Below, one piece after another: positions 1 through 52,015 of a stretch of 64,000 bases of DNA (within the stretch, counting starts at the first letter, position 1; each line of letters begins with the position of its first letter). The DNA comes from Methanobacteriota archaeon. Lineage in GTDB: Archaea > Thermoplasmatota > E2 > DHVEG-1. Made by a program: the position numbers and the translations under genes. A model generated the notes under the pieces. That model was given only the letters and a program-made list of their open reading frames with translations. It was not told the DNA's origin and ran no database searches. The DNA is taken from NCBI GenBank assembly GCA_963769885.1, contig CAVYNH010000004.1, positions 328,431-392,430 on the forward strand, given 5' to 3'.

Positions 1-736
1 AAACATCAAAACCATCCTACGCGGCATCCAACACCACGTCCCCCACGACGAAATCCTCTCTGCCCTGCGCGCCGGCGGCACCTACCCCCCCGACTACTGG
101 AAACCGCTCCTCGACGAAAGTAAAACCATCGACGACGCCATCACCCACCTCAAAGACACCCCCTACCACGACACCCTCCACGCCATCCAGCCCTTCGACC
201 TCGCCACCGCCGAAAACCACCTCGAACAGCACTACTACACCCACCTCCTCCACACCATCCCGCCAAATAACGAACCCAACCGCCTTTTCCACCACTACAT
301 CCAAACCGAAATCGACCTCGTCAACCTCAAAACCCTCCTCATGACCAAATACGAAAACGTCGAACCAGACAGAATCCACGACATGATCATCCCCGACGGC
401 ACCATCCCAGACAAGACCATGTACCGACTCATCACCACCCCCGACTTCACCCACTTCCTCGCCGAACTCCAACACCTTCCCGTCTACAACCACATCCGCC
501 CCGAAGCAGAAACCATCGCCACCACCGGCTCCCTCGCCCCCACCATCAGAGCCCTCGAAAAACGCCACCTCCTCGACGCCACCAAACAAAGCTACCTCCA
601 CCCCCTCTCCATCCTCCCCGTCATCGATTACCTCACCCGCAAACGCATCGAAGTCCAAAACCTCCGGATCCTTACGAGAGGCAAAGAAAAACACCTCCCC
701 GAACAAACCATCCGAAACCTCATGGTGATCCCATAA
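1..736 (+). CDS. atpC: A/V-type ATP synthase subunit C (5'-truncated by window)
   Basis: Frame 2 is open from the window start (NIKTILRG...IQTEIDLVNLKTLL...EVQNLRILTRGK) and lies directly upstream of subunits F, A, B, D. Confidence 0.85.
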   Translation, partial: NIKTILRGIQHHVPHDEILSALRAGGTYPPDYWKPLLDESKTIDDAITHLKDTPYHDTLHAIQPFDLATAENHLEQHYYTHLLHTIPPNNEPNRLFHHYIQTEIDLVNLKTLLMTKYENVEPDRIHDMIIPDGTIPDKTMYRLITTPDFTHFLAELQHLPVYNHIRPEAETIATTGSLAPTIRALEKRHLLDATKQSYLHPLSILPVIDYLTRKRIEVQNLRILTRGKEKHLPEQTIRNLMVIP

Positions 737-737
737 C

Positions 738-1037
738 ATGGCAGGAATAACCGTCGTCGGCAGCCCCGACTTCATCCTCGGCTTCCGCCTCGCCGGCATC
801 CGCAACGTGTATTCGGAAAAAACCAACATCGAACCCCGCATCAACCAAATCCTCGCCGAAGGCCAAGCCAGCATCCTCATCCTCCACGACGAAGACTTCA
901 CCAAACTCCCCGCCGCCATGAAACGCAAACTACGCGACAGCCGCAAACCCATCGTCATCTCCGTCGGCAGCCACGAAGAAGACGACCTCCGCGCCAAAAT
1001 CAAACGCGTCATCGGCATCGACCTCTACACCAAATAA
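738..1037 (+). CDS. atpF: A/V-type ATP synthase subunit F
   Basis: ITVVGSPDFILGFRLAGI and IKRVIGIDL motifs; operon position. Confidence 0.95.
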   Translation: MAGITVVGSPDFILGFRLAGIRNVYSEKTNIEPRINQILAEGQASILILHDEDFTKLPAAMKRKLRDSRKPIVISVGSHEEDDLRAKIKRVIGIDLYTK

Positions 1038-1085
1038 AAAAAACACACAGACTCAAAAAAAAACAGAAAAAAAGGTGCACCCACA

Positions 1086-2825
1086 ATGGCACAAGAAACA
1101 GGAACCATCTACCGCGTCGCCGGCCCCGTCGTCACCGCAGTCGGCATCAAACCCCGCATGTACGACGTCGTCTACGTCAGCGACCTCAACCTCATGGGCG
1201 AAGTCATCCTCATCAGCGGCAACAAATCCGTCATCCAAGTCTACGAAGACACCAGCGGCATCCGCCCCGGAGAACCCGTCCACGCCACCGGATCACCACT
1301 CCTGGCTGAACTCGGTCCAGGCCTCATCACCGGCATCTTCGACGGCATCCAACGCCCCCTCGTCGTCCTCCAGAAAAAAGCAGGCGACTTCATCACCCGC
1401 GGCATCAGCGAACCAGGCCTCGACCGCACCAAACAATGGCAGTTCATCCCCACCGCCAAAAAAGGAGACAGCGTCGAAGGCGGCACCATCCTCGGAACAA
1501 GCCAAGAAACCAAAGACGTCCAACACCGCATCCTCGTCCCCCCTAACATCACCGGCACCATCGAAGACCTCCACGAAGGCAAATACACCGTCGAAGAACC
1601 CTTCTGCAAACTCACCGGAGGCACAACCCTCACGATGCTGCAGCGCTGGCCTGTCCGTACCCCCCGGCCCTACCGCCAAAAACTCATGCCCGACATCCCC
1701 CTCATTACCGGACAGCGCATCTTCGACACCTTCTTCCCCATCGCCAAAGGCGGCACCGCCTGCATCCCCGGCGGCTTCGGCACCGGCAAAACCGTCATGC
1801 AACACCAGCTCGCCAAATGGAGCGACGCCGACATCGTCGTCTACATCGGCTGCGGCGAACGCGGCAATGAAATGACTGAAGTCCTCACCGACTTCCCCGA
1901 ACTCAAAAACCCCCGCACCGGACAACCCCTCATGGACCGCACCATCCTCATCGCCAACACCAGCAACATGCCCGTCGCCGCCCGAGAAGCCAGCATCTAC
2001 ACCGGCATCACCCTCGCCGAATACTACCGCGACCAAGGCTACGGCATCGCCCTCATGGCAGACAGCACCAGCCGCTGGGCCGAGGCCCTGCGAGAAATCA
2101 GCAGCCGCCTCGAAGAGATGCCCGGCGAGGAAGGCTACCCCGCCTACCTCCCCAGCCGCCTCGCCGCTTTCTACGAACGCTCCGGCCGCGTCACCACCAT
2201 GAACAACAAAGAAGGCAGCATCACCGTCGTCGGCGCCGTCAGCCCACCCAGCGCAGACTTCTCCGAACCCGTCACCCAAGACACCCTCAGAATCACCAAA
2301 GTCTTCTGGGCGCTCGACACCAACCTCGCCCACCGCCGCCACTTCCCAGCCATCAACTGGCTCGTCTCCTACAGCTTCTACCTTAACACCCTGGAGAAAT
2401 GGTTCGACGACCACATGTCACCAGAATGGAACCTAAACCGCGCCAAAGCCATGGAGATCCTCCAAGAAGAAGCCTCCCTCCAAGAGATCGTGCAGCTCAT
2501 CGGCTCAGACGCCCTCCCTGAAAACCAACAGCTCACCCTCGAGATCGCCAGAGCCATCCGCGAAGTCTTCCTCCAACAGCACGCCGGCCACGACATTGAC
2601 TCCTTCTGCCCCATCGCCAAACAATACAAGATGCTCAAAGCAATCCTCGATTACGGGAAGCTGGCCAGCGACGCCCTCGAAGCCGGCATCCCCATCAGCG
2701 ACATTTTGAAGATGAAATCACGCGATCTCCTCGCCAACTCCAAATATGAGACCAACTTCGACGAATACCTCGAGAAAGCCCTGGCTGCGATGCGCAAGGA
2801 ATTCCAGACAGCGGAGGCGGTCTAA
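1086..2825 (+). CDS. atpA: A/V-type ATP synthase subunit A
   Basis: P-loop [28 protein letters not shown]; no intein. Confidence 0.98.
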
Positions 2826-2827
2826 CC

Positions 2828-4210
2828 ATGGTCAAGGAATACCACACCATCACCCAGATCGCCGGCCCCCTCATCTTCGTCGAAAAAACCGAGCCGGTCG
2901 GCTACAGCGAAGTCGTCCGCATCCAGCTCCCAGACGGCAGCATCCGCCGCGGTCAAGTCCTCGACACCAGCGGCGACATCATCGTCGTCCAAGTCTTCGA
3001 AGGCACCGCCGGCATCGATAAAGCCTCAGGCGTCACCTTCCTTGGGGAAACCATCAAGCTCTCCGTCTCACCCGACATCCTCGGCCGCATCTTCGACGGC
3101 TCCGGCAACCCCATCGACGGCGGCCCCCGAATCATCCCCGACGAGCGCATGGACACCACCGGCTCCGCGATCAACCCTTGGGCCCGCGCCAGCCCCCGCG
3201 AGTTCATCCAAACCGGAATCTCCACCATCGACGGCCTCCTGACCCTCGTACGCGGCCAGAAACTCCCCCTGTTTTCAGGGCCAGGGCTGCCGCACAACGA
3301 GATCGCCCTGCAGATCACCCGACAAGCCCGAGTCCTCGGAAAAGAAGAGGAGTTCGCCGTCGTCTTCGGCGCCATGGGCATCACCAACGAAGAAGCCCAA
3401 TATTTCATCAAAGACTTCGAACGAACCGGGGCGCTGAAGCGCGCGATCGTGTTCCTGAACCTGGCCAATGACCCTGCCGTCGAACGGATCATCACCCCGA
3501 GGCTGGCGTTGACCGCTGCCGAATACCTCGCCCTGCGTCAGGACATGCAGGTCCTCGTCATTCTGACCGACATGGTGAACTATGCAGAGTCGCTGCGTGA
3601 GATCGGTGCGGCCCGCAAAGAAGTCCCCGGCAGGAAAGGCTATCCCGGGTACATGTACACGGACCTGGCAAGCATCTACGAACGCGCGGTTCGTATCAAG
3701 GGCAAGAAAGGCTCAATCACCCAAATCCCGATTCTCTCCATCCCAGATGACGACTGGACGAACCCGGTCGCAGACCTCACCGGCTATATCACGGAAGGCC
3801 AGATCGCGGTGTCCCGTGAGCTGTACCGCAAGGGTATCTACCCGCCGATCAACCCATTGCCCTCTTTGTCTCGGTTGATGCGCCTCGGGATCGGCCCGGG
3901 GATGACTCGGGAAGACCATCGCGACGTCGAGCAGGGCTTATATGCGACCTACGCAAAAGGCCGGGATGTCCGAGACCTCATCGCGATCATTGGCAAGGAG
4001 GCGCTCTCTGAGAACGACAAGAAGTTCCTGGCGTTCACGGATGCCTTCGAGCAGCGGTTCATCCGACAGGGGAAGAACGAAGACCGCTCCATTGAGGAGA
4101 CATTAAACCTGGGCTGGGAGCTGCTCAATATGGTGCCGGAGAGCACCCTGACCATGGTCGACCATAAGATCCTTGAGCAGTATTACCCGGAGCATCGGAA
4201 GAAGAAATAA
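2828..4210 (+). CDS. atpB: A/V-type ATP synthase subunit B
   Basis: [40 protein letters not shown]. Confidence 0.98.
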
Positions 4211-4839
4211 TGGTGATACAAGAAATCAAGCCGACACGCAGCGAGCTGCTCGCGATCCAGCGGAGGATCTCCCTCTACGAGCGAGGCCATAAGCTGCTGA
4301 AGATGAAACGGGACGGCCTGGTCATGGAGTTCTTCTCCGTGCTCGCCAAGGTCAAGGACGTCCGCTCGAAGATCATCGAAGATTACAAAAAGGCCGAGGA
4401 GCGGCTGGCGATTGCGACGAGCGTCGACGGCCGGAATGCGGTGCAGTCCGCCGCCTTCGCCATCCGTGACGATCCGCACATCAAGATCGGCAGCAAGAAC
4501 GTCATGGGCGTTGTCGTCCCGACAAGGTTGGAAGGCGGGACGGTGAAGCGCCGTATCGACCAGCGTGGGTACGGGGTCACCGGCATCAGCGTCCGCATCG
4601 ACGAGGCCTCGGATGCCTTCGAGCAGCTCGTCGAGGATATCATCCTGGCCGCGGAGTTTGAGACGACGCTGCGCCGGCTCATCGACGAGATTGAGAAGAA
4701 CAAACGGATTGTCAACGCCTTGGAGTTCCGGATCATCCCTGAGTTGAAAAGACAGGTGTCGTTCATCCGGGCGCGTCTTGAGGAGATGGAGCGGGAGAAC
4801 ATCTTCCGGCTGATTAGGATTAAGGGCAGCCAGGTGTGA
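4210..4839 (+). CDS. atpD: A/V-type ATP synthase subunit D
   Basis: KPTRSELL, GHKLLKMKRDGL, RIVNALEFRIIP, LEEMERE. Confidence 0.97.
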   Translation: MVIQEIKPTRSELLAIQRRISLYERGHKLLKMKRDGLVMEFFSVLAKVKDVRSKIIEDYKKAEERLAIATSVDGRNAVQSAAFAIRDDPHIKIGSKNVMGVVVPTRLEGGTVKRRIDQRGYGVTGISVRIDEASDAFEQLVEDIILAAEFETTLRRLIDEIEKNKRIVNALEFRIIPELKRQVSFIRARLEEMERENIFRLIRIKGSQV

Positions 4840-4978: not shown

Positions 4979-5024
4979 AAAGGGAAGAAGAAAGAGTGAA
5001 GGGCCTGTGGCCCTATCTCGTTTT

Positions 5025-7523
5025 TTAGGCTTGTTGTCCGGACATAATCCGCATGCCGTAGAAGCTGCGGTAGACGAAGGTCATGCTGACGGCCAGGAAC
5101 ACGGCGAAGAGGACGTAGTTGAGGTTCGGATACTGGTTGGAGAGGCTCACGGCAAGCGAGACGGCCAGGAGCCCGAACAGGGTGGTGAACTTGATGATCG
5201 GGTTCATGGCGACCGATGAGGTGTCCTTGAAGGGGTCGCCGACCGTGTCGCCGATGACGGTCGCCGCGTGCAGGTCCGTGCCTTTCTCCTTGAGGTCGAC
5301 CTCGACGATCTTCTTGGCGTTGTCCCAGGCGCCACCCGCGTTTGCCATGAAGATGGCCTGGAAGAGTCCGAAAACGGCGATGCTGATCAGGTAGCCTATA
5401 AAGAAGAATGGCTCGAAGAAGGCGAAGGCGAGGGTGGCGAAGAAGACGGCGATGAAGATGTTGAACATCCCTTTCTGGGCGTACTTGGTGCAGATGGCAA
5501 CGACTTTCTTGCTGTCCTCGACGGATGCTCTTTCCACGCCTTCGAGCTTGATGTTCTTTTTAATGAACTCGACGGCCCGGTAAGCACCGGTGCCCACAGC
5601 CTGGGTCGATGCACCCGTGAACCAGTAAATCATGGCGCCACCGGTGATGAGGCCGAGGAAGAACGGAGGGTGCAGGAGGCTGAGGTTCGCAATGTTCGTC
5701 TGCAGGCCGTTCGTCAGCAGGACGATGATGGAGAAAATCATGGTAGTAGCCCCGACGACTGCAGTACCGATAAGGACGGGTTTGGCAGAGGCCTTGAAGG
5801 TGTTACCAGCGCCATCTCCTTCTTCGAGGAGGAGTTTGCCGTGCTCGAAATCTGGCTCGAAGCCGTAATCGCGTTTGATCTCTTCTTTGATGCCTGGCTG
5901 CTGCTCAATCAGTGAGAGTTCGTAGATGGATTGGGCGTTATCCGCCACCGGTCCGTAGCTGTCAACCGCGATGGTGACAGGGCCCATGCCGAGGAACCCG
6001 AAGGCGACGAGCCCGAAGGCAAAGACCGCGTAGATTAAGGGATTGATTGAGAGAGCGGCCAACCCACCTACATTTTCACCAAGAGCGTTAACATGAGCAC
6101 CGTAGGTGCTGACCCCGAATGCGATGCCCATGAGTAGGACGATGGTTAACCCAAGCCAGTAGGCGCTGAAGTTGCCGTCGACGAATCCGGAGAGGATGCC
6201 AAGAGACGGTCCGCTTTTGTCGCTAGTGACGATTTCTTTGACGTGACGGGATTTGGTGGAGGTGAAGACTTTGACGAACTCGGGGATGATAGCACCGGCC
6301 ATGGTGCCGCAGGAGATCACGATGCTGAGTTTCCACCAGAGGGTTGGGTCGGAGAGGTTGCCGAGGAGGAAGTAGGAGGCGATGAAGGTGAAGGCGACAG
6401 AGACGAAGCTGGTGAGCCAGACGAGGGTGGTGAGAGGGGATTCGAAGTTCATGGTCTTGGCGTTGCGGTAGCGGGCGAGGGTGAGGGCGTCGTTGATGAG
6501 GTAGGAGAACATGCTGGAGAAAATCATGAGGATGCGCATCAGGAAGATCCAGACGAGGAGGAGGATCTTGATGGCGGGATCCGCGACCGCGACGATGATG
6601 AAGGTGATGAGGGCGACGCCGGTGACGCCGTAGGTCTCGAAGCCGTCCGCGGTGGGGCCGACCGAGTCTCCTGCGTTGTCGCCGGTGCAGTCTGCGATGA
6701 CGCCGGGGTTGCGGGCGTCGTCTTCTTTGATTTTGAAGACGATCTTCATGAGGTCGGAGCCGATGTCTGCGATTTTGGTGAAGATGCCGCCGGCGATTCT
6801 GAGGGCGGCGGCGCCGAGGGATTCGCCGATGGCGAAGCCGACGAAGCAGGGGCCGGCGTAGTCGCCGGGGATGAAGAGCAGGATCGCGAGCATCATGAAG
6901 AGTTCGACGCTGATGAGGAACATGCCGATGCTGATGCCTGCTTTGAGGGGGATGCGGTTGACTTGGACGGCTTTGCCGGTGAGGCTGGAGAAGGCGCTGC
7001 GGCTGTTGGCGAGGGTGTTGAGTCGGATGCCGAACCAGGCGACGCTGTAGCTGCCTGCGATGCCGATGAGGCTGAAGATGAGGATGATGGCGATTTGGAA
7101 GGGGGCGTAGTTGGAGATGCCGAAGTAGATGACGATGACGATGCCGATGAAGAGTTCGAGGAGGAGGAGGAATTTGCCTTGGGTGATGAGGTAGGTTTTG
7201 CAGGTTTCGTAGATGAGTTCGGAGATGTCGCGCATGGATTTGTGGACGGGGAGGCGTTTGAGGGTGAGGTAGTTGTAGAGTCCGAAGGCGAGTCCGATGA
7301 GGCAGGCGACGAGGCCGATCATGAGGAGGGCTCTGGCGTTGATGCCGAAGTAGGTTTGGGTGCCCAGGTCAGGGAGTTTGAGGCTGGCTTCGCCGCTGGG
7401 TTCGGCGGCGAGGATGCTGGGGGCGGTTGTGAGGAAGAGGATGCTGAGTAGGAGCCCGATGGCGAGGAGTCGGTGGACTTGGTGTCTGTTTTTCTGTGGG
7501 GATCTTCTCATGGTGTGGACCAT
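5025..7523 (-). CDS. hppA: Membrane-bound ion-pumping pyrophosphatase (probably K+-independent H+-PPase)
   Basis: GGIFTKIADIGSDL, EDDARNPGVIADCTGDNAGD, DSYGPVADNA, GNTFKA, GDTVGDPFKDT. Confidence 0.95.
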   Translation of the reverse strand: MVHTMRRSPQKNRHQVHRLLAIGLLLSILFLTTAPSILAAEPSGEASLKLPDLGTQTYFGINARALLMIGLVACLIGLAFGLYNYLTLKRLPVHKSMRDISELIYETCKTYLITQGKFLLLLELFIGIVIVIYFGISNYAPFQIAIILIFSLIGIAGSYSVAWFGIRLNTLANSRSAFSSLTGKAVQVNRIPLKAGISIGMFLISVELFMMLAILLFIPGDYAGPCFVGFAIGESLGAAALRIAGGIFTKIADIGSDLMKIVFKIKEDDARNPGVIADCTGDNAGDSVGPTADGFETYGVTGVALITFIIVAVADPAIKILLLVWIFLMRILMIFSSMFSYLINDALTLARYRNAKTMNFESPLTTLVWLTSFVSVAFTFIASYFLLGNLSDPTLWWKLSIVISCGTMAGAIIPEFVKVFTSTKSRHVKEIVTSDKSGPSLGILSGFVDGNFSAYWLGLTIVLLMGIAFGVSTYGAHVNALGENVGGLAALSINPLIYAVFAFGLVAFGFLGMGPVTIAVDSYGPVADNAQSIYELSLIEQQPGIKEEIKRDYGFEPDFEHGKLLLEEGDGAGNTFKASAKPVLIGTAVVGATTMIFSIIVLLTNGLQTNIANLSLLHPPFFLGLITGGAMIYWFTGASTQAVGTGAYRAVEFIKKNIKLEGVERASVEDSKKVVAICTKYAQKGMFNIFIAVFFATLAFAFFEPFFFIGYLISIAVFGLFQAIFMANAGGAWDNAKKIVEVDLKEKGTDLHAATVIGDTVGDPFKDTSSVAMNPIIKFTTLFGLLAVSLAVSLSNQYPNLNYVLFAVFLAVSMTFVYRSFYGMRIMSGQQA

Positions 7524-7624
7524 CTCCTTTTTGTTTACCCTGAATCTGGTGTTTCTATTTAAAGGAACGTCTTGCGTGGGTTGTAGAATATTGTCTCCCA
7601 GGTATGAAGGATGGAAAATGGGGT

Positions 7625-8968
7625 TTAGGGAGCCGTGGTTCCGATGCTGGCTTTCTTTCTTTTCACATCGACGTAGCGTGCGACCATGAGGAGGCTCATG
7701 GCGACGGCGCTGATAATCATGAATATTAGGACGCCGAGGCCGCCGTAGCGGTCGGAGATGCCGGCGATGGCGGGGATGCCGATGAACATGCCTGCGCTGA
7801 TGACGATGCTGTAGACGGCCATGGTGACGCCTCGCATCGACTCCTTCGCCTCGTCCGCAAGCGAGGACAGCGCGGAGGGCCCGAAGGCGAGGGCCATGAA
7901 CCCGAACAGTGCGAGGAGCGGCCAGTAGGCGATGATGTTGGTCTTGATGGCGCCCTCGGTCATGGGGCTGGCGGTGAGGTAGCCGATGCCCAGGACGGTC
8001 ATGATGCCGACGAAGCCGATGGTGCCGACGACCATGATGGGCAGCCGGCCGTACTTATCGGACAACCTGCCGTAGAAGTACTGGGTGAGGATGAGGAAGG
8101 CACCGCCGCCGGCGATGAGCCCAGCGAGGTATATAGGGGGGATGGTGAGGACGCCTTGGGAGGTGGAGACGGTGAGGAAGGTGAGGGCGGCGCCGATGAT
8201 CATGAAGACGATGAACCAGGGGAGGGTGACGAGGAGGATGGACCGCTGGCGCAGGACCGCAATGATGTTGCGGAACTCGATCTTCTTGGCGAGGATGTCG
8301 TGTTTCTTCGGCTCGGTGATGTTGACGGCGGAGTAGATGACGCCGACCATGGCCATGATGCCGGCGACAGCGAAGGTCATACCAAGGCTGCCTTTGAAGA
8401 ATTCGAGGAAGAGGGCGCCGACCGCGAAGCCGAAGATCCAGCCGAGGAGGTTGAAGGCGTCGAAGGCGCCCATCTCGCGGCCGCGGCGGTCCTCGGGGGC
8501 GTAGTCGGTGAGCAACGCAAGCGATGAGACGAGGATGGAGCCGGCGGCGACGCCGTGGCCGGCGTTGAGGAGGAAGACGGCGTAGAGGTTGGTGGTGAGG
8601 GAGAGGGCGAAGAGGAGGAGGCCGGCGCTGAGGAGGCCGAGGAGGAGGATGATCTTGCGGCCGTAGCGGTCGACGATGGTGCCGATGAACAGGACGGTGC
8701 CCATCTCGAAGAGGGGTGAGGCGGCGGCGACGATGCCGTAGCCCAGGTACGTGGTGGTGATGCCCAGGTATATGGGCAGGGTTGCGAGCATGATTCCGAA
8801 GCTGGCGCGGATGAAGAAGGTGGAGATGTAGAGGGAGGAGAGGAGTCTGAGGGGCGGGTGTTGGGGCATCCTAGTAGTGTGTATTTGGGTGGCGTTTAAA
8901 AAGGGATTCTGTGTGGGGGGGGGGGGTGTTTCTCCTGTTTCTTTCGTTTGCTGTGGTTTTTCCTTCAC
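7625..8968 (-). CDS. MFS transporter (alternative start 8869)
   Basis: About 12 TM segments; motif A twice (GTIVDRYGRK, GRLSDKYGRL). Confidence 0.9.
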   Translation of the reverse strand: MKEKPQQTKETGETPPPPTQNPFLNATQIHTTRMPQHPPLRLLSSLYISTFFIRASFGIMLATLPIYLGITTTYLGYGIVAAASPLFEMGTVLFIGTIVDRYGRKIILLLGLLSAGLLLFALSLTTNLYAVFLLNAGHGVAAGSILVSSLALLTDYAPEDRRGREMGAFDAFNLLGWIFGFAVGALFLEFFKGSLGMTFAVAGIMAMVGVIYSAVNITEPKKHDILAKKIEFRNIIAVLRQRSILLVTLPWFIVFMIIGAALTFLTVSTSQGVLTIPPIYLAGLIAGGGAFLILTQYFYGRLSDKYGRLPIMVVGTIGFVGIMTVLGIGYLTASPMTEGAIKTNIIAYWPLLALFGFMALAFGPSALSSLADEAKESMRGVTMAVYSIVISAGMFIGIPAIAGISDRYGGLGVLIFMIISAVAMSLLMVARYVDVKRKKASIGTTAP

Positions 8969-9136
8969 GGGATGCGAAGCGTTGGGTGTTTTAAATATGG
9001 GTTGTTGTTTTTGGGTGGTTTTGTGTCTTTTTGTTGCATTGGTTAGGGGTGTGGTTTTTAAGCAAAGGCTTTTAAATGTTTATTCGCAATATGCCGGCTC
9101 AGTCCTTGTGGTTGGAACGAAGAGCACGATTCCCCG

Positions 9137-11122: not shown

Positions 11123-11130
11123 TCGAGTTT

Positions 11131-11754: not shown

Positions 11755-11785
11755 CCGACGATGATGGGAGAATGGCCTGGGTTCT

Positions 11786-12733: not shown

Positions 12734-12854
12734 GGTTCGTGGTCTCCCCCTTAGGGTAGGTATGCTCACTAATCTTATGTTAACAATTGTTAATTAAGGT
12801 TGCGGTTCCAGCAAGACAAAAGACACCTTACGCCAGATCCCTCCACCCGAGAGC

Positions 12855-14069: not shown

Positions 14070-14126
14070 GCTTCCCTGCTCCAAGGTAACGAACAGCAAG
14101 GAGTTATTTAAAACATTTTGTCCTGC

Positions 14127-16980: not shown

Positions 16981-17000
16981 ATAAGAAGTAACACTGGGCT

Positions 17001-38094: not shown

Positions 38095-38209
38095 ACCGCC
38101 CAACCCGGCTTCAAATACCCGTAGAAAAAAACCCGGTAGGAAGCCGGGTCCCCAAACCTTTTTTATCCTTTCGCCTGTTACCCAGGGTACCATTTGGGAG
38201 AGGCATCCT

Positions 38210-40701: not shown

Positions 40702-40789
40702 GAGTGCCGTCGTGAAAAGGAAGAAAAAAAGAAGGAGGGTGGCTGCCGTGTTACAGCTAGGGCTTTGATGAGTATGATGCTGTCTGTGG

Positions 40790-41809
40790 TTAGATGAGCC
40801 GTGGAACGTTGAAGAAGATCCTCCCTGGCGTGACGACGGTTTTGGCGTAGTCCGCTCTGATGGTGACGGTGATGCGGCCGAGGCCGTAGAATGGTCTGCC
40901 GGTGCAGAAGGTGAAGGATTCGCCGGGTGTGAGGCGGGGGATGCTGCCGGCGGAGCCGGCGTTGATGTTGTGGAAGATGCCGCCTTTGACGTCGATGTGC
41001 CAGTGGAGGGATTCGATGGTGGTGTTGCCGATGTTGGTGAGGCTGGCGATGATCTTTCCTTGGGCTGCTTTGATGTCGATGATCTTGATGCCGGTGAGGT
41101 TCATGGTGACGGGGATGTCGAGGCTGCCGGCGTTGCTGGTGAGGGTGATGGTGGTCTCGTAGGCGGTGGGGGTGAGGCCGTTTGTGATAGCGGTGACGTT
41201 GATGAGGTCTGGTTCGCCGATGGAGGAGCCGTTGGTGGGGGTAACCTGGAGCCAGGGGGCGTTTTCTTCGAGGGTGTAGGTGAGGGTGCCGATGCCGAGG
41301 TTTTGGATGGTGAGGAAGGCGGTGGCGTTGGCGCCGTTGGGGACGAAGCCGTAGTCGATGGCGGTGGGGGTGCAGGAGAGGGTGGTCTGTGTGTAGAGGA
41401 CGATGGTGAAGTTGGCCCAGAAGATGCCGTTGCCGCCGTCGGAGGTGATGTTAATGGCGCAGGGGTAGTGGCCAAGGGGTAGGGTTGCGGTGTCGATGGT
41501 GACGGTGATGTTGTCGTGTTCGCCGTCCGAGGTGCCGCTGAGGGGGTAGACGGTGACGTAGGAGTAGTTTTCTGAGAGGCTGTACGTGAGGGTGCAGCAG
41601 CCGCCGCCTTTCCAAATCTGGAAGGTGGTGTTGAGGATGGGTCCGGCGAGGAGGTTGCCGAAGTCGTGGAAGATGGGGTCGTAGACGAGGGCCCCCCGTG
41701 TGGTTGGCGGTTGTGGTTGGCTCGTGGTTTTGGCCATGCCGATGGCGCTGACGGCAGCGATGAGACAGAGCAAGCCTATGGTGCAGGTCTTTATCTTCAG
41801 GTGGGTCAT
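40790..41809 (-). CDS. Secreted Ig-like/BACON-repeat protein
   Basis: Signal peptide; two repeats LTY.L.EN..W/Y..V.P..G.S.GE.D.I.V; C-terminal beta domain. Confidence 0.75.
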   Translation of the reverse strand: MTHLKIKTCTIGLLCLIAAVSAIGMAKTTSQPQPPTTRGALVYDPIFHDFGNLLAGPILNTTFQIWKGGGCCTLTYSLSENYSYVTVYPLSGTSDGEHDNITVTIDTATLPLGHYPCAINITSDGGNGIFWANFTIVLYTQTTLSCTPTAIDYGFVPNGANATAFLTIQNLGIGTLTYTLEENAPWLQVTPTNGSSIGEPDLINVTAITNGLTPTAYETTITLTSNAGSLDIPVTMNLTGIKIIDIKAAQGKIIASLTNIGNTTIESLHWHIDVKGGIFHNINAGSAGSIPRLTPGESFTFCTGRPFYGLGRITVTIRADYAKTVVTPGRIFFNVPRLI

Positions 41810-41825
41810 CGTTTTTCCTCTCCCT

Positions 41826-43706
41826 TTAACGGTGGAAACATCCTCCTTGTTCTTTATTAAATTTTCCGTGAAAACCGGGGGTGTCAGGGGAGAAGAGGGG
41901 GCGGGGGTCGATGTTCCAGCGTAGGGAGGCGGGCTGGCCTGGTGGGGTGTATTTGCCTTGGATGAGGGCGAGGAGGTGGGGGCGGCCCCAGTAGTTGCGG
42001 GTCCAGGTGTTGTGGCAGGCGTCCGAGGTGGGGCCGAGGAAGTAGGCGTTGAGCTTGTAGTTGTCCAAGTTGTTGTGGGTGACGGTGACGGCGGTGGCGT
42101 TGTAGAGGCGGATGCCATACTGGTTGTCCTGGAGGGTGTTGTGGGTGATGGTGACGGTGTGGGTGTTGTGCAGGCTGATGCCGTGGAGGTTCTCCTGCAG
42201 GAGGGTGTCGGTGATGGTGACGTTTGAGGTGGTGAGGGTGAGGATGCCGTAGTGGCCGTTTTGGATGGTGAAGGAGGTGATGGTGCAGTCGGGGTGGGTG
42301 ACGGTGATGCCGTCGTCGTAGCCGGCGCCGTCGATGATCGTGGTCGTTTGGCTTGCGCCTTGGAGGGTGAGGGCCTTGGGCAGGGTGACGCCGCCGGGGT
42401 AGGTTCCGGGGTAGACGTAGATGGTGTCGCCGTCGGAGGCGTTCTCGACGGCGGCGGGGATGGTGGTGTAGTTGCCGGGGCCGCTGCCGCCGACGTACAG
42501 GGTCTTGGGGGTGACGGCGAGGGTGGTTCCAGTGAGGTTCACGGGTGGGACGGCGGCCGGGGTTTTGTCCCAGGTGAGGACGGGGAGGTTGTGGCCGTTG
42601 CGTTTGAGCCGGCCGGGGATGAGGTAGGGGCGGCTGCGGGGTTTTGACCAGTAGTTGTCAGAGAAGTGGGTAGTGCGTTGGAGAAGGGTGGCGGTGATGG
42701 TGTAGGCGTCGTTTTTGAGGTTTTGGAAGGTATTGTTATAGATCTGGGTGTGGTTTGTGTATTCGAGGAGGAGGCCGTCGTCGTTTCCCTGCAGGAGGTT
42801 GAGCGTGATGTTCGTGTGGGTGGATTGTGAGAGGTAGAGGCCGGTGCTGTCGGCGTTGGTGATGGTGTTGTGTTGTATTTGTGTTCCGGTGCAGTCGTAG
42901 ATCCAGGTGTTCATCCAGCGGGCGTTGGTGATGCGGTTGTTGGTGATGAGGAGGTTGGTGCAGAGGATGGCGATGAGGTTGGTGCTGCTGCCGTGGATGA
43001 TGTTGCTGCCGATGGAGGAAGCGTTGAGGTGGTCGACTTGGATGCCGTTCCATTTGCAGGCGAGGGTGTTGTTGTGGATGTTGATGGTGTCGTCGTAGGA
43101 GCAGTAGATGCCGGTGTCGTCGTTGATGAACTGGCTGTCTCTGATTTCGTTGTCTGTGGTATTGAGGATGGTGACGCCTGTTTTGCAGTCTTGGAGGGTG
43201 TTTCCTTTGAAGAAGTTGTGGTCGGCGCCGTTGGCGGCGAGGATGCCGATGGAGGCGTTGGCGATGATGAGGCCGGAAAGCCAGACGACGTGGGCGGGGT
43301 CGACGGTCAGTGAGATGCCGGCGTCCATCGCGGCGAGTCCGCTGTTGCGGATGGTGAAATTGGTGATTTGGACGGCGAGCGTGAGGATGGTGACGACGGT
43401 GCCGGTGTAGTTCCCGTCGATGACCGTGGTCGTGTTCGATTCCCCCTTGAGGGTGATGCCCCAGGTCTGCATGGTGAGGTGCTCGTAGTAGGGCGAGGAG
43501 TCGGCAAAGACGTACACGCTGTCCCCTGTTTGTGCGGCATCGAGGGCGCCTTGGATGGTGGTGTAGTTGCCGGGGCCGCTGCCGCCGACGTACAGGGTCG
43601 TGCTGCGGGGGATTCCGCTCGCGTTTCCTGGCAGAGTAAAGGGTAGCGTACTGACCAGGATGACGAGCACGAAAAAACTTTTGCCGGTTGTCTTCGGGGA
43701 CGCCAT
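41826..43706 (-). CDS. Secreted tandem beta-helix (NosD) protein
   Basis: Two LYVGGSGPGNYTTI modules with PbH1 repeats. Confidence 0.85.
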   Translation of the reverse strand: MASPKTTGKSFFVLVILVSTLPFTLPGNASGIPRSTTLYVGGSGPGNYTTIQGALDAAQTGDSVYVFADSSPYYEHLTMQTWGITLKGESNTTTVIDGNYTGTVVTILTLAVQITNFTIRNSGLAAMDAGISLTVDPAHVVWLSGLIIANASIGILAANGADHNFFKGNTLQDCKTGVTILNTTDNEIRDSQFINDDTGIYCSYDDTINIHNNTLACKWNGIQVDHLNASSIGSNIIHGSSTNLIAILCTNLLITNNRITNARWMNTWIYDCTGTQIQHNTITNADSTGLYLSQSTHTNITLNLLQGNDDGLLLEYTNHTQIYNNTFQNLKNDAYTITATLLQRTTHFSDNYWSKPRSRPYLIPGRLKRNGHNLPVLTWDKTPAAVPPVNLTGTTLAVTPKTLYVGGSGPGNYTTIPAAVENASDGDTIYVYPGTYPGGVTLPKALTLQGASQTTTIIDGAGYDDGITVTHPDCTITSFTIQNGHYGILTLTTSNVTITDTLLQENLHGISLHNTHTVTITHNTLQDNQYGIRLYNATAVTVTHNNLDNYKLNAYFLGPTSDACHNTWTRNYWGRPHLLALIQGKYTPPGQPASLRWNIDPRPLFSPDTPGFHGKFNKEQGGCFHR

Positions 43707-45534: not shown

Positions 45535-46518
45535 ATGGGACCCACGCCACCGCCATCCCAGCCCAACGACTTCCACCAAGTCACCACCCAGCTCCTCACC
45601 ACCCCCCTCACCTGCACCAGCCTCGACACCCTCCAACTCAACCTCGGACGCCGCTGCAACCAATCCTGCACTCACTGCCACCACCAGGCCTCACCAGACC
45701 GCACCGAAACCATGCCACTACAAGTCATCCACCGCATCCTTCGCTTCCTCCCCACCACCCCAGTAAAAGCCGTAGACATCACCGGCGGCGCCCCGGAACT
45801 CCACCCCCACCTCCGCACCCTTATCACCCACCTCACCGAACGAGGCTACCCCGTCACCCTCCGCACCAACCTCACCGCCCTCACCCTCCCCACCTCAACA
45901 GGACTGCCCGAATTCCTCAAAGACCACCACGTCACCCTCATCGCCTCTCTCCCCTGCTACCTCCAAGAAAACGTCGACGCCCAACGCGGCCCCGGCGCCT
46001 ACCACAAAAGCATCGACATGCTCACCGTCCTCAACCGCCTCGGCTACGGCATCGACCCCCAACTCCCCCTCGGCCTCGTCCACAACCCCACCATCCACAC
46101 CCTCCCCACACCACAAGACCAACTCGAAACCGACTACCGCCGAGAACTCCAAGCCCGCCACGGCATCCAGTTCACCAGCCTCCTCACCATCACCAACATG
46201 CCCATCGGCCGGTTCCTCAACAACCTCCAAGCCCACCACCACAACCACCACTACCACCATCTCCTCCGCTCTAGCTTCAACCCCCAGACCCTCCCCGGCC
46301 TCATGTGCCAACACCAACTCTGCGTCCGCTGGGACGGCCGCCTCTACGACTGCGACTTCAACCTCGCCCAAGACCTCCCCATCACCAGCCCCAACATAAC
46401 CATCGACACCGCCACCCTCCACGACCTCATCCCCAGGCCCGTCACCACCGCGGACCACTGCTTCGGCTGCACCGCCGGCCGCGGCTCATCCTGCCAAGGA
46501 GCACTCGTCACCCCATGA
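45535..46518 (+). CDS. arsS: ArsS-like radical SAM protein (DUF3641; arsenosugar biosynthesis family)
   Basis: LQLNLGRRCNQSCTHCH, DITGGAPELHP, ASLPCY, LYDCDFN, HCFGCTAGRGSSCQGAL. Confidence 0.85.
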   Translation: MGPTPPPSQPNDFHQVTTQLLTTPLTCTSLDTLQLNLGRRCNQSCTHCHHQASPDRTETMPLQVIHRILRFLPTTPVKAVDITGGAPELHPHLRTLITHLTERGYPVTLRTNLTALTLPTSTGLPEFLKDHHVTLIASLPCYLQENVDAQRGPGAYHKSIDMLTVLNRLGYGIDPQLPLGLVHNPTIHTLPTPQDQLETDYRRELQARHGIQFTSLLTITNMPIGRFLNNLQAHHHNHHYHHLLRSSFNPQTLPGLMCQHQLCVRWDGRLYDCDFNLAQDLPITSPNITIDTATLHDLIPRPVTTADHCFGCTAGRGSSCQGALVTP

Positions 46519-47216
46519 CCAACCCACCACACGACGACAAGAAGACACGACTCTGGTGGCGCCCCACCAGCCTCCTCCTCGCCGTCATCACCATCTTCAT
46601 CGTCGCCACGATCCTGGGCCTCGACCGCTACCTCCAAGGCATCCAACCCTGGATCACCAACCTGGGTCCATGGGGCGTCATCGCCTTCTTCTTCATCTAC
46701 CTCGCCGCCGTCATCCTCGCCGTCCCCGCCACCCCCCTCGGCCTGCTCGCCGGCGCCCTCTTCGGATCACTGCAGGGCGTCATCCTCATCAGCATCAGCA
46801 GCACCATCGGCGCAGCCCTCACCTTCCTCATCGCCCGCTACTTCGCACGCGACTCCATCACCCAATGGCTCGCCACCAACAACCGCTACCGCCGCCTCGA
46901 CAACCTCACCAAAAAACACGGCATGATCATGGTCGCCATCGCCAGACTCGTCCCCTTCTTCCCCTTCAACATCATCAACTACGCCTTCGGCCTCACCGCC
47001 GTCAAATTCCGCACCTACCTCTTCTGGAGCTGGCTGTGCATGCTCCCCGGCACCATCCTCTTCGTCGTCGGCGCCGACGCCATCAAACAAGGCCTCACCA
47101 CCGGACACATCCCCCTCACCCTCATCCTCATCATCACCCTCGCTGCCATCGCCACCATCCTCCTCGCCCTCCTCGCCAACCGCTACCTCAAACACCGCAC
47201 CCCACCACGAGACTAA
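46515..47216 (+). CDS. TVP38/TMEM64 (DedA/VTT) membrane protein
   Basis: LAGALFG, FLIARY, RLVPFFPFNIINYAFGLT. Confidence 0.9.
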   Translation: MTNPPHDDKKTRLWWRPTSLLLAVITIFIVATILGLDRYLQGIQPWITNLGPWGVIAFFFIYLAAVILAVPATPLGLLAGALFGSLQGVILISISSTIGAALTFLIARYFARDSITQWLATNNRYRRLDNLTKKHGMIMVAIARLVPFFPFNIINYAFGLTAVKFRTYLFWSWLCMLPGTILFVVGADAIKQGLTTGHIPLTLILIITLAAIATILLALLANRYLKHRTPPRD

Positions 47217-47221
47217 CCACC

Positions 47222-48046
47222 ATGACTCGATCCCTCGCCGCCCGCCGCTACCTCCTCATCCGCGGACCACAACAGACACAACGACGCCTCATCCAAGCCA
47301 CCTACACCGCCCTCAAACGCCGCCAGCACCCAGACCTCGCCCCTCTCATGGAATACCCCCTAAAGACCCAAGCTTCCCTCCTCTTCTACCCCGGCTGCTC
47401 CATCTACTCCCCCACCACCACCCGCAACACCCTACGAATCCTTGACCACCTCGACATCCCGTACCAGACCCTCGGCGGCCTCACCTACTGCTGCGGCCTC
47501 CCCCACCGCCTCCAAGGACAAACCAAAAAAGCAGACGCCTGCACCACCAGACTCACAACAGCAATCAACACAGTCAACCCCCAGACCATCATCACCAGCT
47601 GCCTCGAATGCCTCGAAGCACTTCAACACATCAAAACCCAGACCAACGCCCCCTACGAAATCCTCCACACCCTCGAACTCATCCACCAACACCAAGCCAA
47701 ATTCCCCCACACCCACACAGACACGCCGCTCCTCCTCCACGAACCCTGCCGCCTCACCCCCCGCCTCAGAACCACCATCATCGACCTCGCCGCCAGCCTC
47801 GGCCAACACCCCATCCTCCTCCCCCCCACCACCCAAAGCTGCTGCAAACGATGGACCCACAACCCCCGCACCATCGCCACCCACCACCACGCCTACCTCA
47901 CCACCGCAGCCGCCCACCACGCCACCATCATCTGCCCCTGCCTCACCTGCCTCGAAGCCTTCAAAAAAACACACCCCACAGCCCCCCTCACCGACCTCAT
48001 CGACCTCTATGCCACAAGCCTTCCCGCCAAGGAGGCCACACCATGA
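47222..48046 (+). CDS. CCG-domain Fe-S protein (HdrB/GlpC-like)
   Basis: FYPGC, YCCGLP, ITSCLEC, HEPC, SCC, CPCLTC. Confidence 0.7.
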   Translation: MTRSLAARRYLLIRGPQQTQRRLIQATYTALKRRQHPDLAPLMEYPLKTQASLLFYPGCSIYSPTTTRNTLRILDHLDIPYQTLGGLTYCCGLPHRLQGQTKKADACTTRLTTAINTVNPQTIITSCLECLEALQHIKTQTNAPYEILHTLELIHQHQAKFPHTHTDTPLLLHEPCRLTPRLRTTIIDLAASLGQHPILLPPTTQSCCKRWTHNPRTIATHHHAYLTTAAAHHATIICPCLTCLEAFKKTHPTAPLTDLIDLYATSLPAKEATP

Positions 48047-48714
48047 GTGAAACCCGCATCCTCCTCTACGTTAAGTACCCGGACCCAGGCCACGTCAAAC
48101 AACGCCTCATCCCCCTATTGACCCCCCAAGCCGCCGCCGACCTCTACCGCTGCTTCGTCGCCGACACCCTCGCCACCCTCCACCGCCTCCCCCACCCATT
48201 CACCATCTGCTACAACCCCACACACTCGCAACATGACTATGAAGCCTGGCTCGGACCCCATGACTATCAGCCCCAAGACGGCCCCGACCTCGGCGCCCGC
48301 ATGCACCACAGCTTCACCCACGCCTTCACCACAGGTACCGACAAGGCTGTACTCATCGGCAGTGACACCCCCGACCTCCCACCAAAACTCATCCAACAAG
48401 CCGTTGACTGCCTCAACACCCACGACATCGTCCTCGGCCCCGCCCTCGACGGCGGCTACTACCTTATCGCCTGCAAACAAGACCGCTACCTCTCCGACCT
48501 CTTCACCAACATCCCCTGGAGCACCCCCACCGTCCTCCAAACAACACTCGACACTATCCACCGCAACCACCACACCGTCTTCCAGATTCCAACCTGGCAA
48601 GACATTGATACCCCAAAAGACCTCAACCGCCTCATCCAGCGCAACCAACAAACAGCCTTTAAATCCTCACAAACGTTCACTTACCTTACGAACCTGGAAC
48701 AACAACTCCTATGA
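48043..48714 (+). CDS. TIGR04282-like (DUF2064/CofC-fold) transferase
   Basis: KYPDPGHVKQRL, QDGPDLGARM, IGSDTPDL, GPALDGGYYLI, DIDTPKDL. Confidence 0.88.
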   Translation: MSETRILLYVKYPDPGHVKQRLIPLLTPQAAADLYRCFVADTLATLHRLPHPFTICYNPTHSQHDYEAWLGPHDYQPQDGPDLGARMHHSFTHAFTTGTDKAVLIGSDTPDLPPKLIQQAVDCLNTHDIVLGPALDGGYYLIACKQDRYLSDLFTNIPWSTPTVLQTTLDTIHRNHHTVFQIPTWQDIDTPKDLNRLIQRNQQTAFKSSQTFTYLTNLEQQLL

Positions 48715-49175
48715 AAAAACCCCCCACCGACCCCGACATCACCCTCACCCGCCCCCACTTCCTCCTCTACACCGGATTCCTCACCCTGGCCGCCGTCTCC
48801 CTCTACCTCGCCTTCGTCGAAGCCGAACTCGCCTACCTCGGCTATATCTGGAAATACTCCACCCACTACGTCTACCAGATAGGCGTCTACACCGCCGCCC
48901 TCTTCATCGCCGCCGTCTTCCTCATCCAAAGCTGCCTCCTCCTCGCCCGCCACCGACCTTACGCGACCATCCCCGGGCTCTTCGGCTGCCTCATCCTCGT
49001 CGTCTTCCCCGCCTACCTCCTCGCCATCAACCCGGAGCATACCGTCCCCGTCTTCGTCCTCATCGCCCCCGCCCTCCTCCTACTCCTGCTCAGCATCCTA
49101 ATCTGGAAAAAACCGCCCTTAAAGACGCCGCCACCACCAGAGCATCCCAAGAAACACAACACCGGCGAACAGTAA
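48711..49175 (+). CDS. 4-TM membrane protein
   Basis: Four hydrophobic helices; ATGA-type coupling to the upstream gene. Confidence 0.65.
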   Translation: MKKPPTDPDITLTRPHFLLYTGFLTLAAVSLYLAFVEAELAYLGYIWKYSTHYVYQIGVYTAALFIAAVFLIQSCLLLARHRPYATIPGLFGCLILVVFPAYLLAINPEHTVPVFVLIAPALLLLLLSILIWKKPPLKTPPPPEHPKKHNTGEQ

Positions 49176-50503: not shown

Positions 50504-50575
50504 GCGGATATGATCTAGTGGTTATGATATCGGCTTCCCAAGCCGGTCACACGGGTTCGAATCCCGTTATCCGCA
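50504..50575 (+). tRNA. tRNA-Gly(CCC)
   Basis: GCGGATA/TATCCGC acceptor, TCGGC-TTCCCAA-GCCGG anticodon arm, GGTTCGAATCC. Confidence 0.96.
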
Positions 50576-50623
50576 TGAGAAGATCTGCGGGGGAGAAATC
50601 AACTACATTGAAGGTGGTGAAGA

Positions 50624-50830
50624 ATGAAAGCAAGTATTAATGTCGGTAACCGCGTACAGCTTGTGTATATGAACGATTCGTTGACGAAACTGCGGCCTGG
50701 CGATATGGGCACCGTGGTCGACATCGACACCCAGGGCGACGAAGAGACGCTCATCTGGGTGGACTGGGATAATGGGGAGCGCCTCGCGCTGTTGTCTGAG
50801 ACGGATAGGTACAAGGTCATCCGCAGGTAA
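50624..50830 (+). CDS. DUF4314-like SH3-fold small protein
   Basis: GNRVQLVYMND..LRPGDMGTV..IWVDWDNG. Confidence 0.75.
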   Translation: MKASINVGNRVQLVYMNDSLTKLRPGDMGTVVDIDTQGDEETLIWVDWDNGERLALLSETDRYKVIRR

Positions 50831-50857
50831 ACCCCTTTTTCCCTTCTTTCTCTTTTC

Positions 50858-51883
50858 TTAGAAATCGAAGAGATTTCTCTGTTTGAGGAGGTACTCGGCC
50901 TTCTGGAATTTTTCAAGGGCCGGCATGACGCGGTCTTTGGAGAACTGGTGGTCTTCGTGAAGGAGCTGGAGTGCCTTGTCGATGTCCGGAGGCGACCATT
51001 TGAGCGTATAGTCGTTGGTCACGTGTGGATGGAGGAAAATCTCTCGGATTTTCTCTATCTCATCCTGTGGGAGGGTGATCTCGGGGTTGGTCTGGAGGAG
51101 GGTTTCGAGGGTGCCGTGTTCTTTGATGGCGGCGAGGCTTTTTTTGGGTCCGTAGCCTTTGACGCCGTCGTTGAAGTCGGTGCCGAGGAGGATCGCGATG
51201 TCGACGAGTTGTTCCCTGGTTATTTGGTTGGCTTTGAGTCCTTGGTCGAGGCGGAGGAGCTCGGGGAGGACTTTGACGAAGGCTTGTTTTCCGGGGAGTT
51301 TGCGGCGTTCTGAGCTGGTGAGGTTGCGGATGAGGAGAGGGGTGCCGAAGAGGAGGCAGTCGAAGTCCTGGCTGCCGACGGCGTAGGCGTGGTTCTGTTG
51401 GACGATGCGGGAGGCTTGGGCTTCGCCTTCAGAGGGTGCCTGGACGAAAGGTATCCCGAGGGCAAGCAGGAGTTCTTTGCTTTCGGCGATCATGTCGTCG
51501 GTGAGCCGTGAGGTCTGGCTCGCCTTGGATTTGGCGGTGGCGAGGTCGCCGGCGGCGAGGGCGGTTTGGTAGTCGCGTTCTGCCTGTTCTTTGCGTTTGC
51601 GTCGTTCGTCGATGGTGCGTGCTTTGAGGGGATGAGGTTGGCCGTCGAAGACGTAGGCGGGACGGATGCCGGCTTCGACGAGGTTGGAGGTGCGGAAGAG
51701 GAGGCCTGACAAGTGGGAGGTGATGCGGCCGGTGGCGTCTTTGAGGGGTGTGCCGTCGCGCTGGCGGATGATGGCCAGGAATTGGTGGATGACGTTGTGG
51801 GCGTCGATGGCGATAATGCGGCCGCTGAAATCTTGGAAGCTGCAGGTGGTTTTTGGGAAGAGGTCCCCGAGGTCGACGCCCAT
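50858..51883 (-). CDS. fen: Flap endonuclease 1
   Basis: MGVDL, QFLAIIRQRDGTPL, APSEGEAQA, SQDFD, GTDFN, PIP box QRNLFDF. Confidence 0.97.
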   Translation of the reverse strand: MGVDLGDLFPKTTCSFQDFSGRIIAIDAHNVIHQFLAIIRQRDGTPLKDATGRITSHLSGLLFRTSNLVEAGIRPAYVFDGQPHPLKARTIDERRKRKEQAERDYQTALAAGDLATAKSKASQTSRLTDDMIAESKELLLALGIPFVQAPSEGEAQASRIVQQNHAYAVGSQDFDCLLFGTPLLIRNLTSSERRKLPGKQAFVKVLPELLRLDQGLKANQITREQLVDIAILLGTDFNDGVKGYGPKKSLAAIKEHGTLETLLQTNPEITLPQDEIEKIREIFLHPHVTNDYTLKWSPPDIDKALQLLHEDHQFSKDRVMPALEKFQKAEYLLKQRNLFDF

Positions 51884-52015
51884 AGTGGTTGAAGGAGGAA
51901 TTCCTGTGGCGTGTTTTATTGTTTTTGTGTGGGGGTAGCGATAGTTTTAAAGAAACCCTCCCCCGAACATAGCAAAGTTTTTAACATAACAGATAATAGT
52001 AATGCTAGGAAGGTT

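Follow-up and report, generated by a model that had tools for sequence, protein, structure and literature searches.

Strand skews are normally faint, chromosome-scale marks of replication. In vertebrate mitochondria, C>T and A>G changes fall on one strand, the A+C-rich strand is the sense strand of most genes, and ND6 shows the mirror image. Around yeast origins and in human N-domains, skew on a G+T versus C+A axis jumps abruptly at the start site, returns gradually and is independent of gene orientation, the yeast leading strand being A+C-rich (PMC3459929). For archaea, a 2026 survey traced cumulative skews over whole chromosomes and correlated them with gene strand bias; in Haloferax volcanii, an origin is a local maximum of the cumulative third-position and non-coding GC skew, and this skew is anticorrelated with gene strand bias (PMC12999951). 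GRINS, defined as duplicated regions undergoing gene conversion (>500 bp, with >80% identity to another copy), carry intense skews of both signs (PMC8256042), and human meiotic hotspots show C>N and A>N mutations on the resected single strand on each side (PMC7615360). Here, we analyzed a 64,000-nucleotide stretch (the window) of a Methanobacteriota archaeon (GTDB lineage Thermoplasmatota; E2; DHVEG-1), positions 328,431 to 392,430 of contig CAVYNH010000004.1 (C4) in the 2.09-Mb, seven-contig assembly GCA_963769885.1 (G000), whose backbone is a mosaic of kilobase-scale tracts of alternating strand skew. This mosaic was very probably left by a substitution process that works regionally and strand-asymmetrically on the DNA itself, and not by selection on codons or mRNA. 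A literature search found no description of a kb-scale, near-saturating skew mosaic in an archaeal chromosome.

GC skew per kb reached extremes of −0.59 and +0.49 in the window, where the binomial 99.9th percentile is 0.147. An earlier note, made from the letters of this DNA, had described the alternation from four 60-base counts and nine named domains. All four counts were reproduced exactly (C26/G6 at 1-60, C32/G4 at 46081-46140, G30/C5 at 42121-42180 and G21/T34/C2/A3 at 9001-9060), and the sign was right in 9/9 domains, which have GC skews of −0.53 to +0.41 and TA skews of the same sign. Both AT-rich elements (14.5-32 kb and 52-64 kb) measured unskewed, as described. The span of 1-51950 given for the pattern is a different matter: the skew there is real but not special to it, since the whole genome backbone is skewed. 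Backbone |GC skew| per kb has a median of 0.17 and a 90th percentile of 0.39, the assembly divides into ~390 sign domains whose median length is 4.5 kb, and the autocorrelation of the skew goes negative at 5-6 kb. With Lobry-type replication skew the mosaic shares a neutral-site skew on the G+T/C+A axis that is independent of gene orientation; the chromosome-scale origin and terminus domains of that type are absent, the cumulative skew having no chromosome-scale trend.

Across 1496 backbone genes, the sense-strand GC skew at third codon positions (GC3 skew) ran from −0.95 to +0.97 with a median of −0.35, being below 0 in 72%, below −0.5 in 38% and above +0.2 in 19% of them. GC3 skew and the corresponding AT3 skew correlated at −0.85 in the genome gene set, and the axis is therefore C+A versus G+T. 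In strongly skewed window genes, third positions are ~70-80% C, 10-19% A, 5-12% G and 0-5% T; in other window genes, G3 equals or exceeds C3. Protein composition tracks the same drift as silent sites: across skew bins, the summed fraction of Pro, Thr, His and Gln goes from 0.227 to 0.131 and that of Gly, Val, Cys and Trp from 0.135 to 0.226. GRINS likewise combine intense, correlated GC and TA skews that are strongest at third positions and take both signs on one strand with an amino-acid shift between Pro/Thr/His/Gln and Gly/Val/Cys/Trp (PMC8256042). In contrast to GRINS, the tracts described here consist of housekeeping DNA present in one copy, together tile the entire genome and have their anchors in 5′ intergenic regions, and no part of the window backbone gave a self-hit of ≥200 bp elsewhere in the genome.

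Skew of this strength can mislead gene calling. In the window, 28 backbone genes were verified by Pfam; genome-wide, we relied on a gene caller that uses a strong/weak (S/W) alphabet only, which is unchanged by complementation and blind to G/C and A/T asymmetry; it chose the right strand for 28/28 of the Pfam-verified window genes. A caller based on amino-acid composition was dropped after picking shadow open reading frames (ORFs) for the most skewed operon, for the M48 peptidase gene and for that of a geranylgeranyl-reductase-like oxidoreductase (GGR). Long shadow ORFs without a Pfam match lie opposite strongly skewed genes at 17-1018 (−), 35026-35964 (+) and 45895-48651 (−). On the C-rich strand of 45.5-49.3 kb several frames are open at once, and composition-based callers can choose the wrong strand.

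Gene orientation accounted for the GC3 skew of the + strand with an R2 of only 0.27. The sense skews of adjacent same-strand genes correlated at +0.65, and those of adjacent opposite-strand genes at −0.39 to −0.52 at all gene-score thresholds. Intergenic DNA has the same skew as its flanks, and in G-rich-sense genes a skew of +0.2 continues unchanged through promoter and start codon. Nine of the ten most G-rich-sense genes were Pfam-verified on the called strand, including MCM, PcrB, MetE and a Mur ligase, and Pfam-verified genes attain sense GC3 skews of +0.9. In the window, the three genes that had been named as lying against their tracts (APC permease, flavodoxin and GGR) are all Pfam-verified with a G-rich sense strand (+0.19 to +0.32; Table 1). 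The loss of the skew on controlling for orientation, offered beforehand as a way to refute the pattern, thus does not occur, given the low R2, the anticorrelated opposite-strand neighbors and the skewed intergenic DNA; the description of a skew that covers intergenic DNA and genes in both orientations was accurate.

We estimated substitution rates from four Logan contigs of one run (45 kb) that represent a 91-95% identical strain. Exchanges were counted at synonymous third positions, genes with outlying divergence were dropped, and stationarity was assumed because identity to the closest outgroups is 73-87%, a distance at which the composition of third positions is nearly saturated; the numbers of W>A and A>W exchanges were roughly balanced. 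In genes with a C-rich sense strand (22 genes, 6097 sites), the rates were.019 for C>T,.072 for G>A,.313 for T>C and.061 for A>G. Genes with a G-rich sense strand (9 genes, 1894 sites) gave the mirror image (.063,.027,.080 and.306 in the same order), and weak-skew genes (10 genes, 2679 sites) were intermediate (.039,.035,.125 and.169), with summed rates ~80% of the tract sums. The mirroring means that the bias belongs to the DNA strand and not to the message. C>T, C>G and A>G were 2.3-5 times rarer on the C+A-rich strand than on its partner (C>G 3-5 times lower on the C-rich strand), so that neutral sites of the C+A strand drift to ~75% C, 11% A, 10% G and 4% T. Non-coding tract sites had the same lean, 1.6-fold.

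Deamination-type changes are thus concentrated on the G+T-rich strand, which is the signature of vertebrate mitochondria: more C>T and A>G on one strand than on the other, with ratios of 2.3-5 here, and a minority of genes mirrored in the manner of ND6. The suggestion of a strand-asymmetric, mitochondria-like mutation process made in the earlier note is upheld by these rates and by their mirroring in anti-oriented genes. Unlike the mitochondrial genome, which is one replicon with defined origins, the 2-Mb chromosome has several hundred alternating blocks and a GC3 of ~0.8.

The same data bear on selection for codon usage or mRNA composition, that is, for C- and A-ending codons or unstructured C/A-rich messages. 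Such selection would be in line with the C/A-rich sense strand of most genes and with the lower synonymous divergence of strongly skewed genes. Translational codon bias is, however, tied to the coding sense strand, and here the rates are mirrored in G-sense genes and non-coding DNA, including the intergenic regions, is skewed. The atpA and atpB subunits of the A-type ATP synthase are needed in equal amounts, yet the skew gradient splits their genes. As the main cause, codon or mRNA selection is refuted by the anticorrelated neighbors, the verified G-rich-sense genes with skews up to +0.9 and the mirrored rates, and we regard it as very improbable. We also rejected a rearranged ancient replication skew: inversions leave the sense skew of a gene unchanged, some of the boundaries are smooth ramps within genes, and the amplitudes are far too high.

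Sequencing, polishing, assembly or binning could in principle have produced the pattern, as could a chimera of two organisms. We found no sign of this; independent JGI, ENA and Logan contigs from other runs give the same skew map, and the genes are intact and match Pfam families. For orthologues that are 73-87% identical, GC3 skews correlated with r = 0.78 (n=49), and for those that are 91-95% identical with r = 0.99-1.00; an artefact is extremely improbable. Taken together, selection and artefact claim a very small share of the probability, and whatever the readings weighed below leave over falls to something not considered. As third positions are near saturation at 73-87% identity (third-position identity, id3, 0.5-0.8), an r of 0.78 indicates that the map is kept by an ongoing process at stable places. 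For single genes, the APC permease has a skew of +0.19 here versus +0.26 and +0.28 in two congeners, and MCM +0.64 versus +0.40 in a congener. In a congener contig (L037:3903-15911, equivalent to G000:C3 ~45-56 kb), the genes of the PolD small and large subunits and MCM stand in a row, convergent with an S12-S7-EF2 operon.

The syntenic same-genus genome G001 (73% nucleotide identity) has the same profile at lower amplitude, and the skew peak at atpC/F is also found in two congeners (contigs L029 and L030). Syntenic loci in five other genera of the family have a GC content of 0.27-0.46 and no strong skew; among the relatives sampled, the pattern is confined to this genus. Two congeners also have a single large M28 peptidase gene (L029:1-4670, L030:804-4544) that passes within one ORF from an unskewed GC of 0.37-0.41 to a GC of 0.57 with a GC skew of −0.5. 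This change in composition reflects either a gene mosaic or a tract starting inside the gene.

Along the + strand the profile is a sawtooth, with abrupt steps from G+T to C+A and a gradual return. At the 300-bp scale, down steps outnumbered up steps by 22:1 (threshold 0.5) or 35:6 (threshold 0.45), and the two were equal at 1.5 kb. Jumps of one polarity followed by a gradual return are the mark of eukaryote-type origin skews. Two-sided switches fell on 45 divergent, 23 codirectional and 2 convergent junctions, and the opposite, upward switches avoid divergent junctions (3/213). Past a strong step, the skew falls to zero in ~4-5 kb, however far away the next one lies. Upstream of orc1/cdc6, the step polarity is the same as elsewhere.

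We tentatively hypothesize that one-directional DNA synthesis determines the polarity. Synthesis would start in promoter-bearing 5′ intergenic regions, by an initiation that could be dispersed and origin-like, R-loop-primed or recombination-dependent, and would run outward for ~2-8 kb, with the strand that runs 5′→3′ away from the start becoming C+A-rich. Since tracts ignore gene ends, genes pointing towards a start site would gain a G+T-rich sense strand, and a C+A-rich sense strand would be found in 72-78% of genes because most genes point away from 5′ intergenic regions. A directional, DNA-level process from these regions would fit the sawtooth, the passage of tracts through genes and the sign at once. 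Of the mechanisms proposed in the earlier note, the strand-asymmetric process stands, and dispersed or R-loop-primed synthesis is the leading candidate by geometry and sign.

Yeast origins and human N-domains have in common with the mosaic the abrupt jump at a start site, the gradual return, the G+T versus C+A axis and the independence from gene orientation, and the A+C-rich leading strand of yeast has the sign seen here (PMC3459929). Here, by comparison, GC3 skews of up to ±0.9 exceed theirs by an order of magnitude, the domains are ~4.5 kb long versus tens of kb to Mb, the decay is of fixed length, the start sites are putative, and the host is an archaeon that has two orc1/cdc6 genes. H. volcanii is itself an archaeon in which neutral-site GC skew runs against gene strand bias, and its origin polarity is that of the steps here; its skews were described as whole-chromosome cumulative curves, with no kb mosaic or near-complete loss of silent-site G and T reported (PMC12999951). 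The shape of the mosaic thus resembles eukaryotic origin skews, its mutation signature mitochondria, and its composition and amino-acid usage GRINS.

Several of these features could also arise from transcription-coupled asymmetry, in which C>T and A>G changes would avoid the non-template strand of each transcription unit or fall preferentially on its template strand, with a strength that scales with RNA polymerase traffic, and read-through and antisense transcription would carry the bias into oppositely oriented neighbors. Abrupt steps occur only where promoters exist, as the junction counts given above illustrate, the sense strand is C+A-rich in 72-78% of genes, the bias decays along operons, and codirectional sites are one-sided on average. 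MCM, whose skew is reversed, lies at C3:49566-51668, just past the downstream end of the convergent S12-S7-EF2 operon. H. volcanii GC skew is likewise anticorrelated with gene strand bias (PMC12999951). A further point for transcription comes from GGR, which is anti-oriented in a C+A tract that holds no co-oriented gene in this genome: the orphan tract has a co-oriented ammonium-transporter (Amt) gene in a close strain. This extra + strand gene lies between HtrA and GGR in the 91-95% identical strain (L033:6116-7330), at the ~12.8-kb step, and would give this one orphan tract a historical explanation.

In the known transcription asymmetries of E. coli and mammals, the non-template strand gains T and G. 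The sign here is the opposite, as the earlier note had recognized from the predominance of C/A-rich sense strands among genes: for C-sense genes, the rate on the sense strand is the lower one both for C>T (.019 vs.072) and for A>G (.061 vs.313). Transcription asymmetry should also follow the gene strand and stop at unit ends, whereas 28% of genes are reversed, tracts pass through and some are orphans. Tracts cross 42% of divergent and 40% of convergent junctions, and at the latter there is little attenuation, with a flank skew correlation of 0.58 versus 0.76 at codirectional junctions. No co-oriented gene is present in 49/439 domains, and the share of anti-oriented genes hardly differs between the supposed source end of a tract (24%) and elsewhere (22%).

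The region directly upstream of the window also speaks against transcription. A 20-kb run of + strand genes only, made up of a 13-gene operon, a Pfam-verified beta-propeller gene and the atp operon, is C-rich for 3.3 kb, G-rich for 6.6 kb and C-rich for 9 kb. The 6.6-kb G+T stretch (C4:316,700-323,300) is the distal part of the 13-gene operon and has no − strand gene inside. For the orphan tract ahead of the atp operon, a − strand gene in the supposed gap was ruled out, this gap being the + strand beta-propeller gene, and an Rfam search for an RNA there found nothing. We consider transcription-coupled asymmetry rather unlikely on balance.

Recurrent breaks or gaps, putatively in the 5′ intergenic regions, could generate polarity in another way. 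Resection in the 5′→3′ direction would expose the 3′-ended strand on each side, and the exposed single strand would suffer deamination of C and A, or the resected strand would be refilled inaccurately, with repair from sister chromosome copies in a polyploid cell. The two-sided, mirrored, kb-scale pattern of fixed length would suit such a process, as would the strain difference in gene content exactly at the 12.8-kb step and the very uneven gene-to-gene divergence between strains (third-position divergence, d3, 0.009-0.26), which is expected under frequent recombination. Human meiotic double-strand break hotspots match in sign and mutation types, with mirrored asymmetry over 1-2 kb on each side and loss of C and A on the single-stranded strand (PMC7615360). 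The human signal is, however, one of mutation rate and not of compositional equilibrium, and break repair predicts raised divergence in tract cores, where third-position divergence was lower (0.064 vs 0.082; |skew| vs d3, r = −0.44). The ~80% of summed rates kept by weak-skew regions would fit only if these regions are overlaps of opposite tracts. Recurrent break repair therefore appears distinctly unlikely.

Synthesis from 5′ intergenic regions has difficulties of its own. It implies ~120-400 putative start sites for a 2-Mb genome that has just two orc1/cdc6 genes, a number that would be unprecedented for an archaeon, and the fixed 4-5 kb decay is unlike the linear origin-to-origin ramp of classical replication domains. 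On average, codirectional junctions have no reversed tract upstream, so that many sites look one-sided and follow the promoter direction. In the atp tract the maximum lies 4-5 kb past the beginning of the operon and not at the beginning. Mitochondrial-type displacement would give a gradient proportional to how long each site stays single-stranded, counted from a defined origin; gradients exist here, yet the atp tract has its peak mid-operon. Deamination of a single-stranded, displaced sense strand, the simple picture, would produce the opposite sign. The rate estimates presuppose stationarity and come from 45 kb of one strain pair. Finally, UDG, EndoV, PolB and NucS are present in G000, in G001 and in many unskewed relatives, so that no gene explains the difference between genera. 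MutS and a Y-family polymerase were not found in any genome searched. Of the genes that the earlier note had proposed to look for, orc1/cdc6 (two genes) and UDG are there, but no loss of UDG, EndoV or NucS marks the skewed genus. The gene of the NucS/EndoMS mismatch endonuclease and one of the two orc1/cdc6 genes are immediate neighbors in the same orientation (G000:C6:259505-261630), and an AT-richer intergenic region (GC 0.44) lies upstream.

The tracts of the window are collected in Table 1. The C+A tract over the atp operon has its onset ~4-5 kb upstream of the window and falls to zero inside the operon (GC3 skew −0.87 in atpC, −0.90 in atpF, −0.72 in atpA, −0.33 in atpB and +0.02 in atpD); the gradient in atpB/D that had been pointed out is real. 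The − strand genes of the following G+T tract have sense GC3 skews of −0.54 to −0.65, and the tract runs through the oppositely oriented APC permease gene. Sense GC3 skews are −0.49 in the 200-aa gene at 37492-38094, −0.69 to −0.76 in the NosD/BACON/NosD genes, and −0.82 to −0.87 in the strongest C+A tract, where C3 rises to 0.82 and T3 falls to 0.01. The five genes of that tract are packed, apparently as one operon (start and stop codons overlap by 4 bases at three of the four junctions, and a 5-base gap separates the genes at the fourth), and its 154-aa protein matches no known family. AT-rich island 1 has genes for an aldehyde:ferredoxin oxidoreductase (AFOR), a GH57 glycosidase, a PAS-DUF835-HTH sensor and a HAD hydrolase; in island 2, directly after FEN1, most larger ORFs have no Pfam match. 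Both islands look like imports still unshaped by the skew process.

Table 1. Skew tracts, steps, anti-oriented genes and AT-rich islands of the window (positions count from the first base of the window).
Feature	Position	Strand	Evidence
C+A-rich tract over the A-type ATP synthase operon (atpC, F, A, B, D)	1..4839	+	Pfam; GC3 skew
G+T-rich tract over H+-PPase, MFS, MBL and HtrA genes (all − strand)	5000..12800	+ (strand of the skew)	GC skew +0.23, TA skew +0.09
APC amino-acid permease, anti-oriented inside the G+T tract	9137..11122	+	Pfam PF13520; sense GC3 skew +0.19
Abrupt G+T to C+A step in the HtrA promoter region, between two − strand genes	12770..12855	.	Step at 12807
GGR (geranylgeranyl-reductase-like FAD oxidoreductase)	12855..14186	−	Pfam PF01494; sense GC3 skew +0.31, AT3 skew −0.74
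AT-rich island 1, GC 0.38, unskewed	14500..32000	.	Adjoins tRNA-Ser 31958-32041 (− strand)
RFC large subunit in a C+A tract	32138..33556	+	Pfam; GC3 skew −0.56; abrupt start at the island/tRNA boundary, step 31988
G+T-rich tract over a gene without assigned family, M48 peptidase and LemA (all − strand)	33600..36500	.	Pfam; skew
Flavodoxin, anti-oriented inside the 33600..36500 G+T tract	34480-34977	+	Pfam; sense GC3 skew +0.32
Weak C+A tract over a 200-aa gene without assigned family and the start of the M20 peptidase gene	37500..38700	.	GC skew −0.20
Strong G+T tract (+ strand) over NosD/BACON/NosD surface-protein genes	39655..43706	−	Pfam; tract GC skew +0.41
Strongest C+A tract of the window: radical SAM/DUF3641, VTT, CCG, DUF2064 and 154-aa genes	45535..49175	+	Pfam; step 45539
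FEN1 in a G+T-rich tract that ends at the island 2 integrase gene	50858..51883	−	Pfam; GC3 skew −0.70; step 51936
AT-rich island 2, GC 0.36, unskewed	52000..64000	.	Starts with a tyrosine (phage-type) integrase gene, 51911-53155

What is added here to earlier descriptions is the sawtooth anchored at promoter junctions, its genome-wide extent, the skew-blind gene calls, the mirrored rates between strains, the conservation across species and a sign calibrated on the literature. A signal as strong as that of animal mitochondria is present, yet it is split into several hundred blocks that begin sharply in 5′ intergenic regions. Should these blocks mark starts of DNA synthesis or repair, silent-site composition would be a high-resolution map of them in an uncultured archaeon. 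In its boldest and more doubtful form, the proposal is that the genus copies or recopies its chromosome from hundreds of fixed promoter-proximal starts, transcript-primed or recombination-dependent, so that each 5-10 kb block would have its own leading-strand polarity, and that the lineage would thereby have been driven from an AT-rich state (relatives GC 0.27-0.46) to ~58% GC with its proteins recoded.

Origin-independent replication is known from Haloferax and Thermococcus mutants, and the mosaic, if this interpretation is true, would offer a way to ask how such replication looks in nature. Composition-based gene callers and detectors of horizontal transfer will misread genomes of this kind. 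Mutation pressure can override both codon usage and protein composition, and the process found here accompanies a large shift in GC content within one family.

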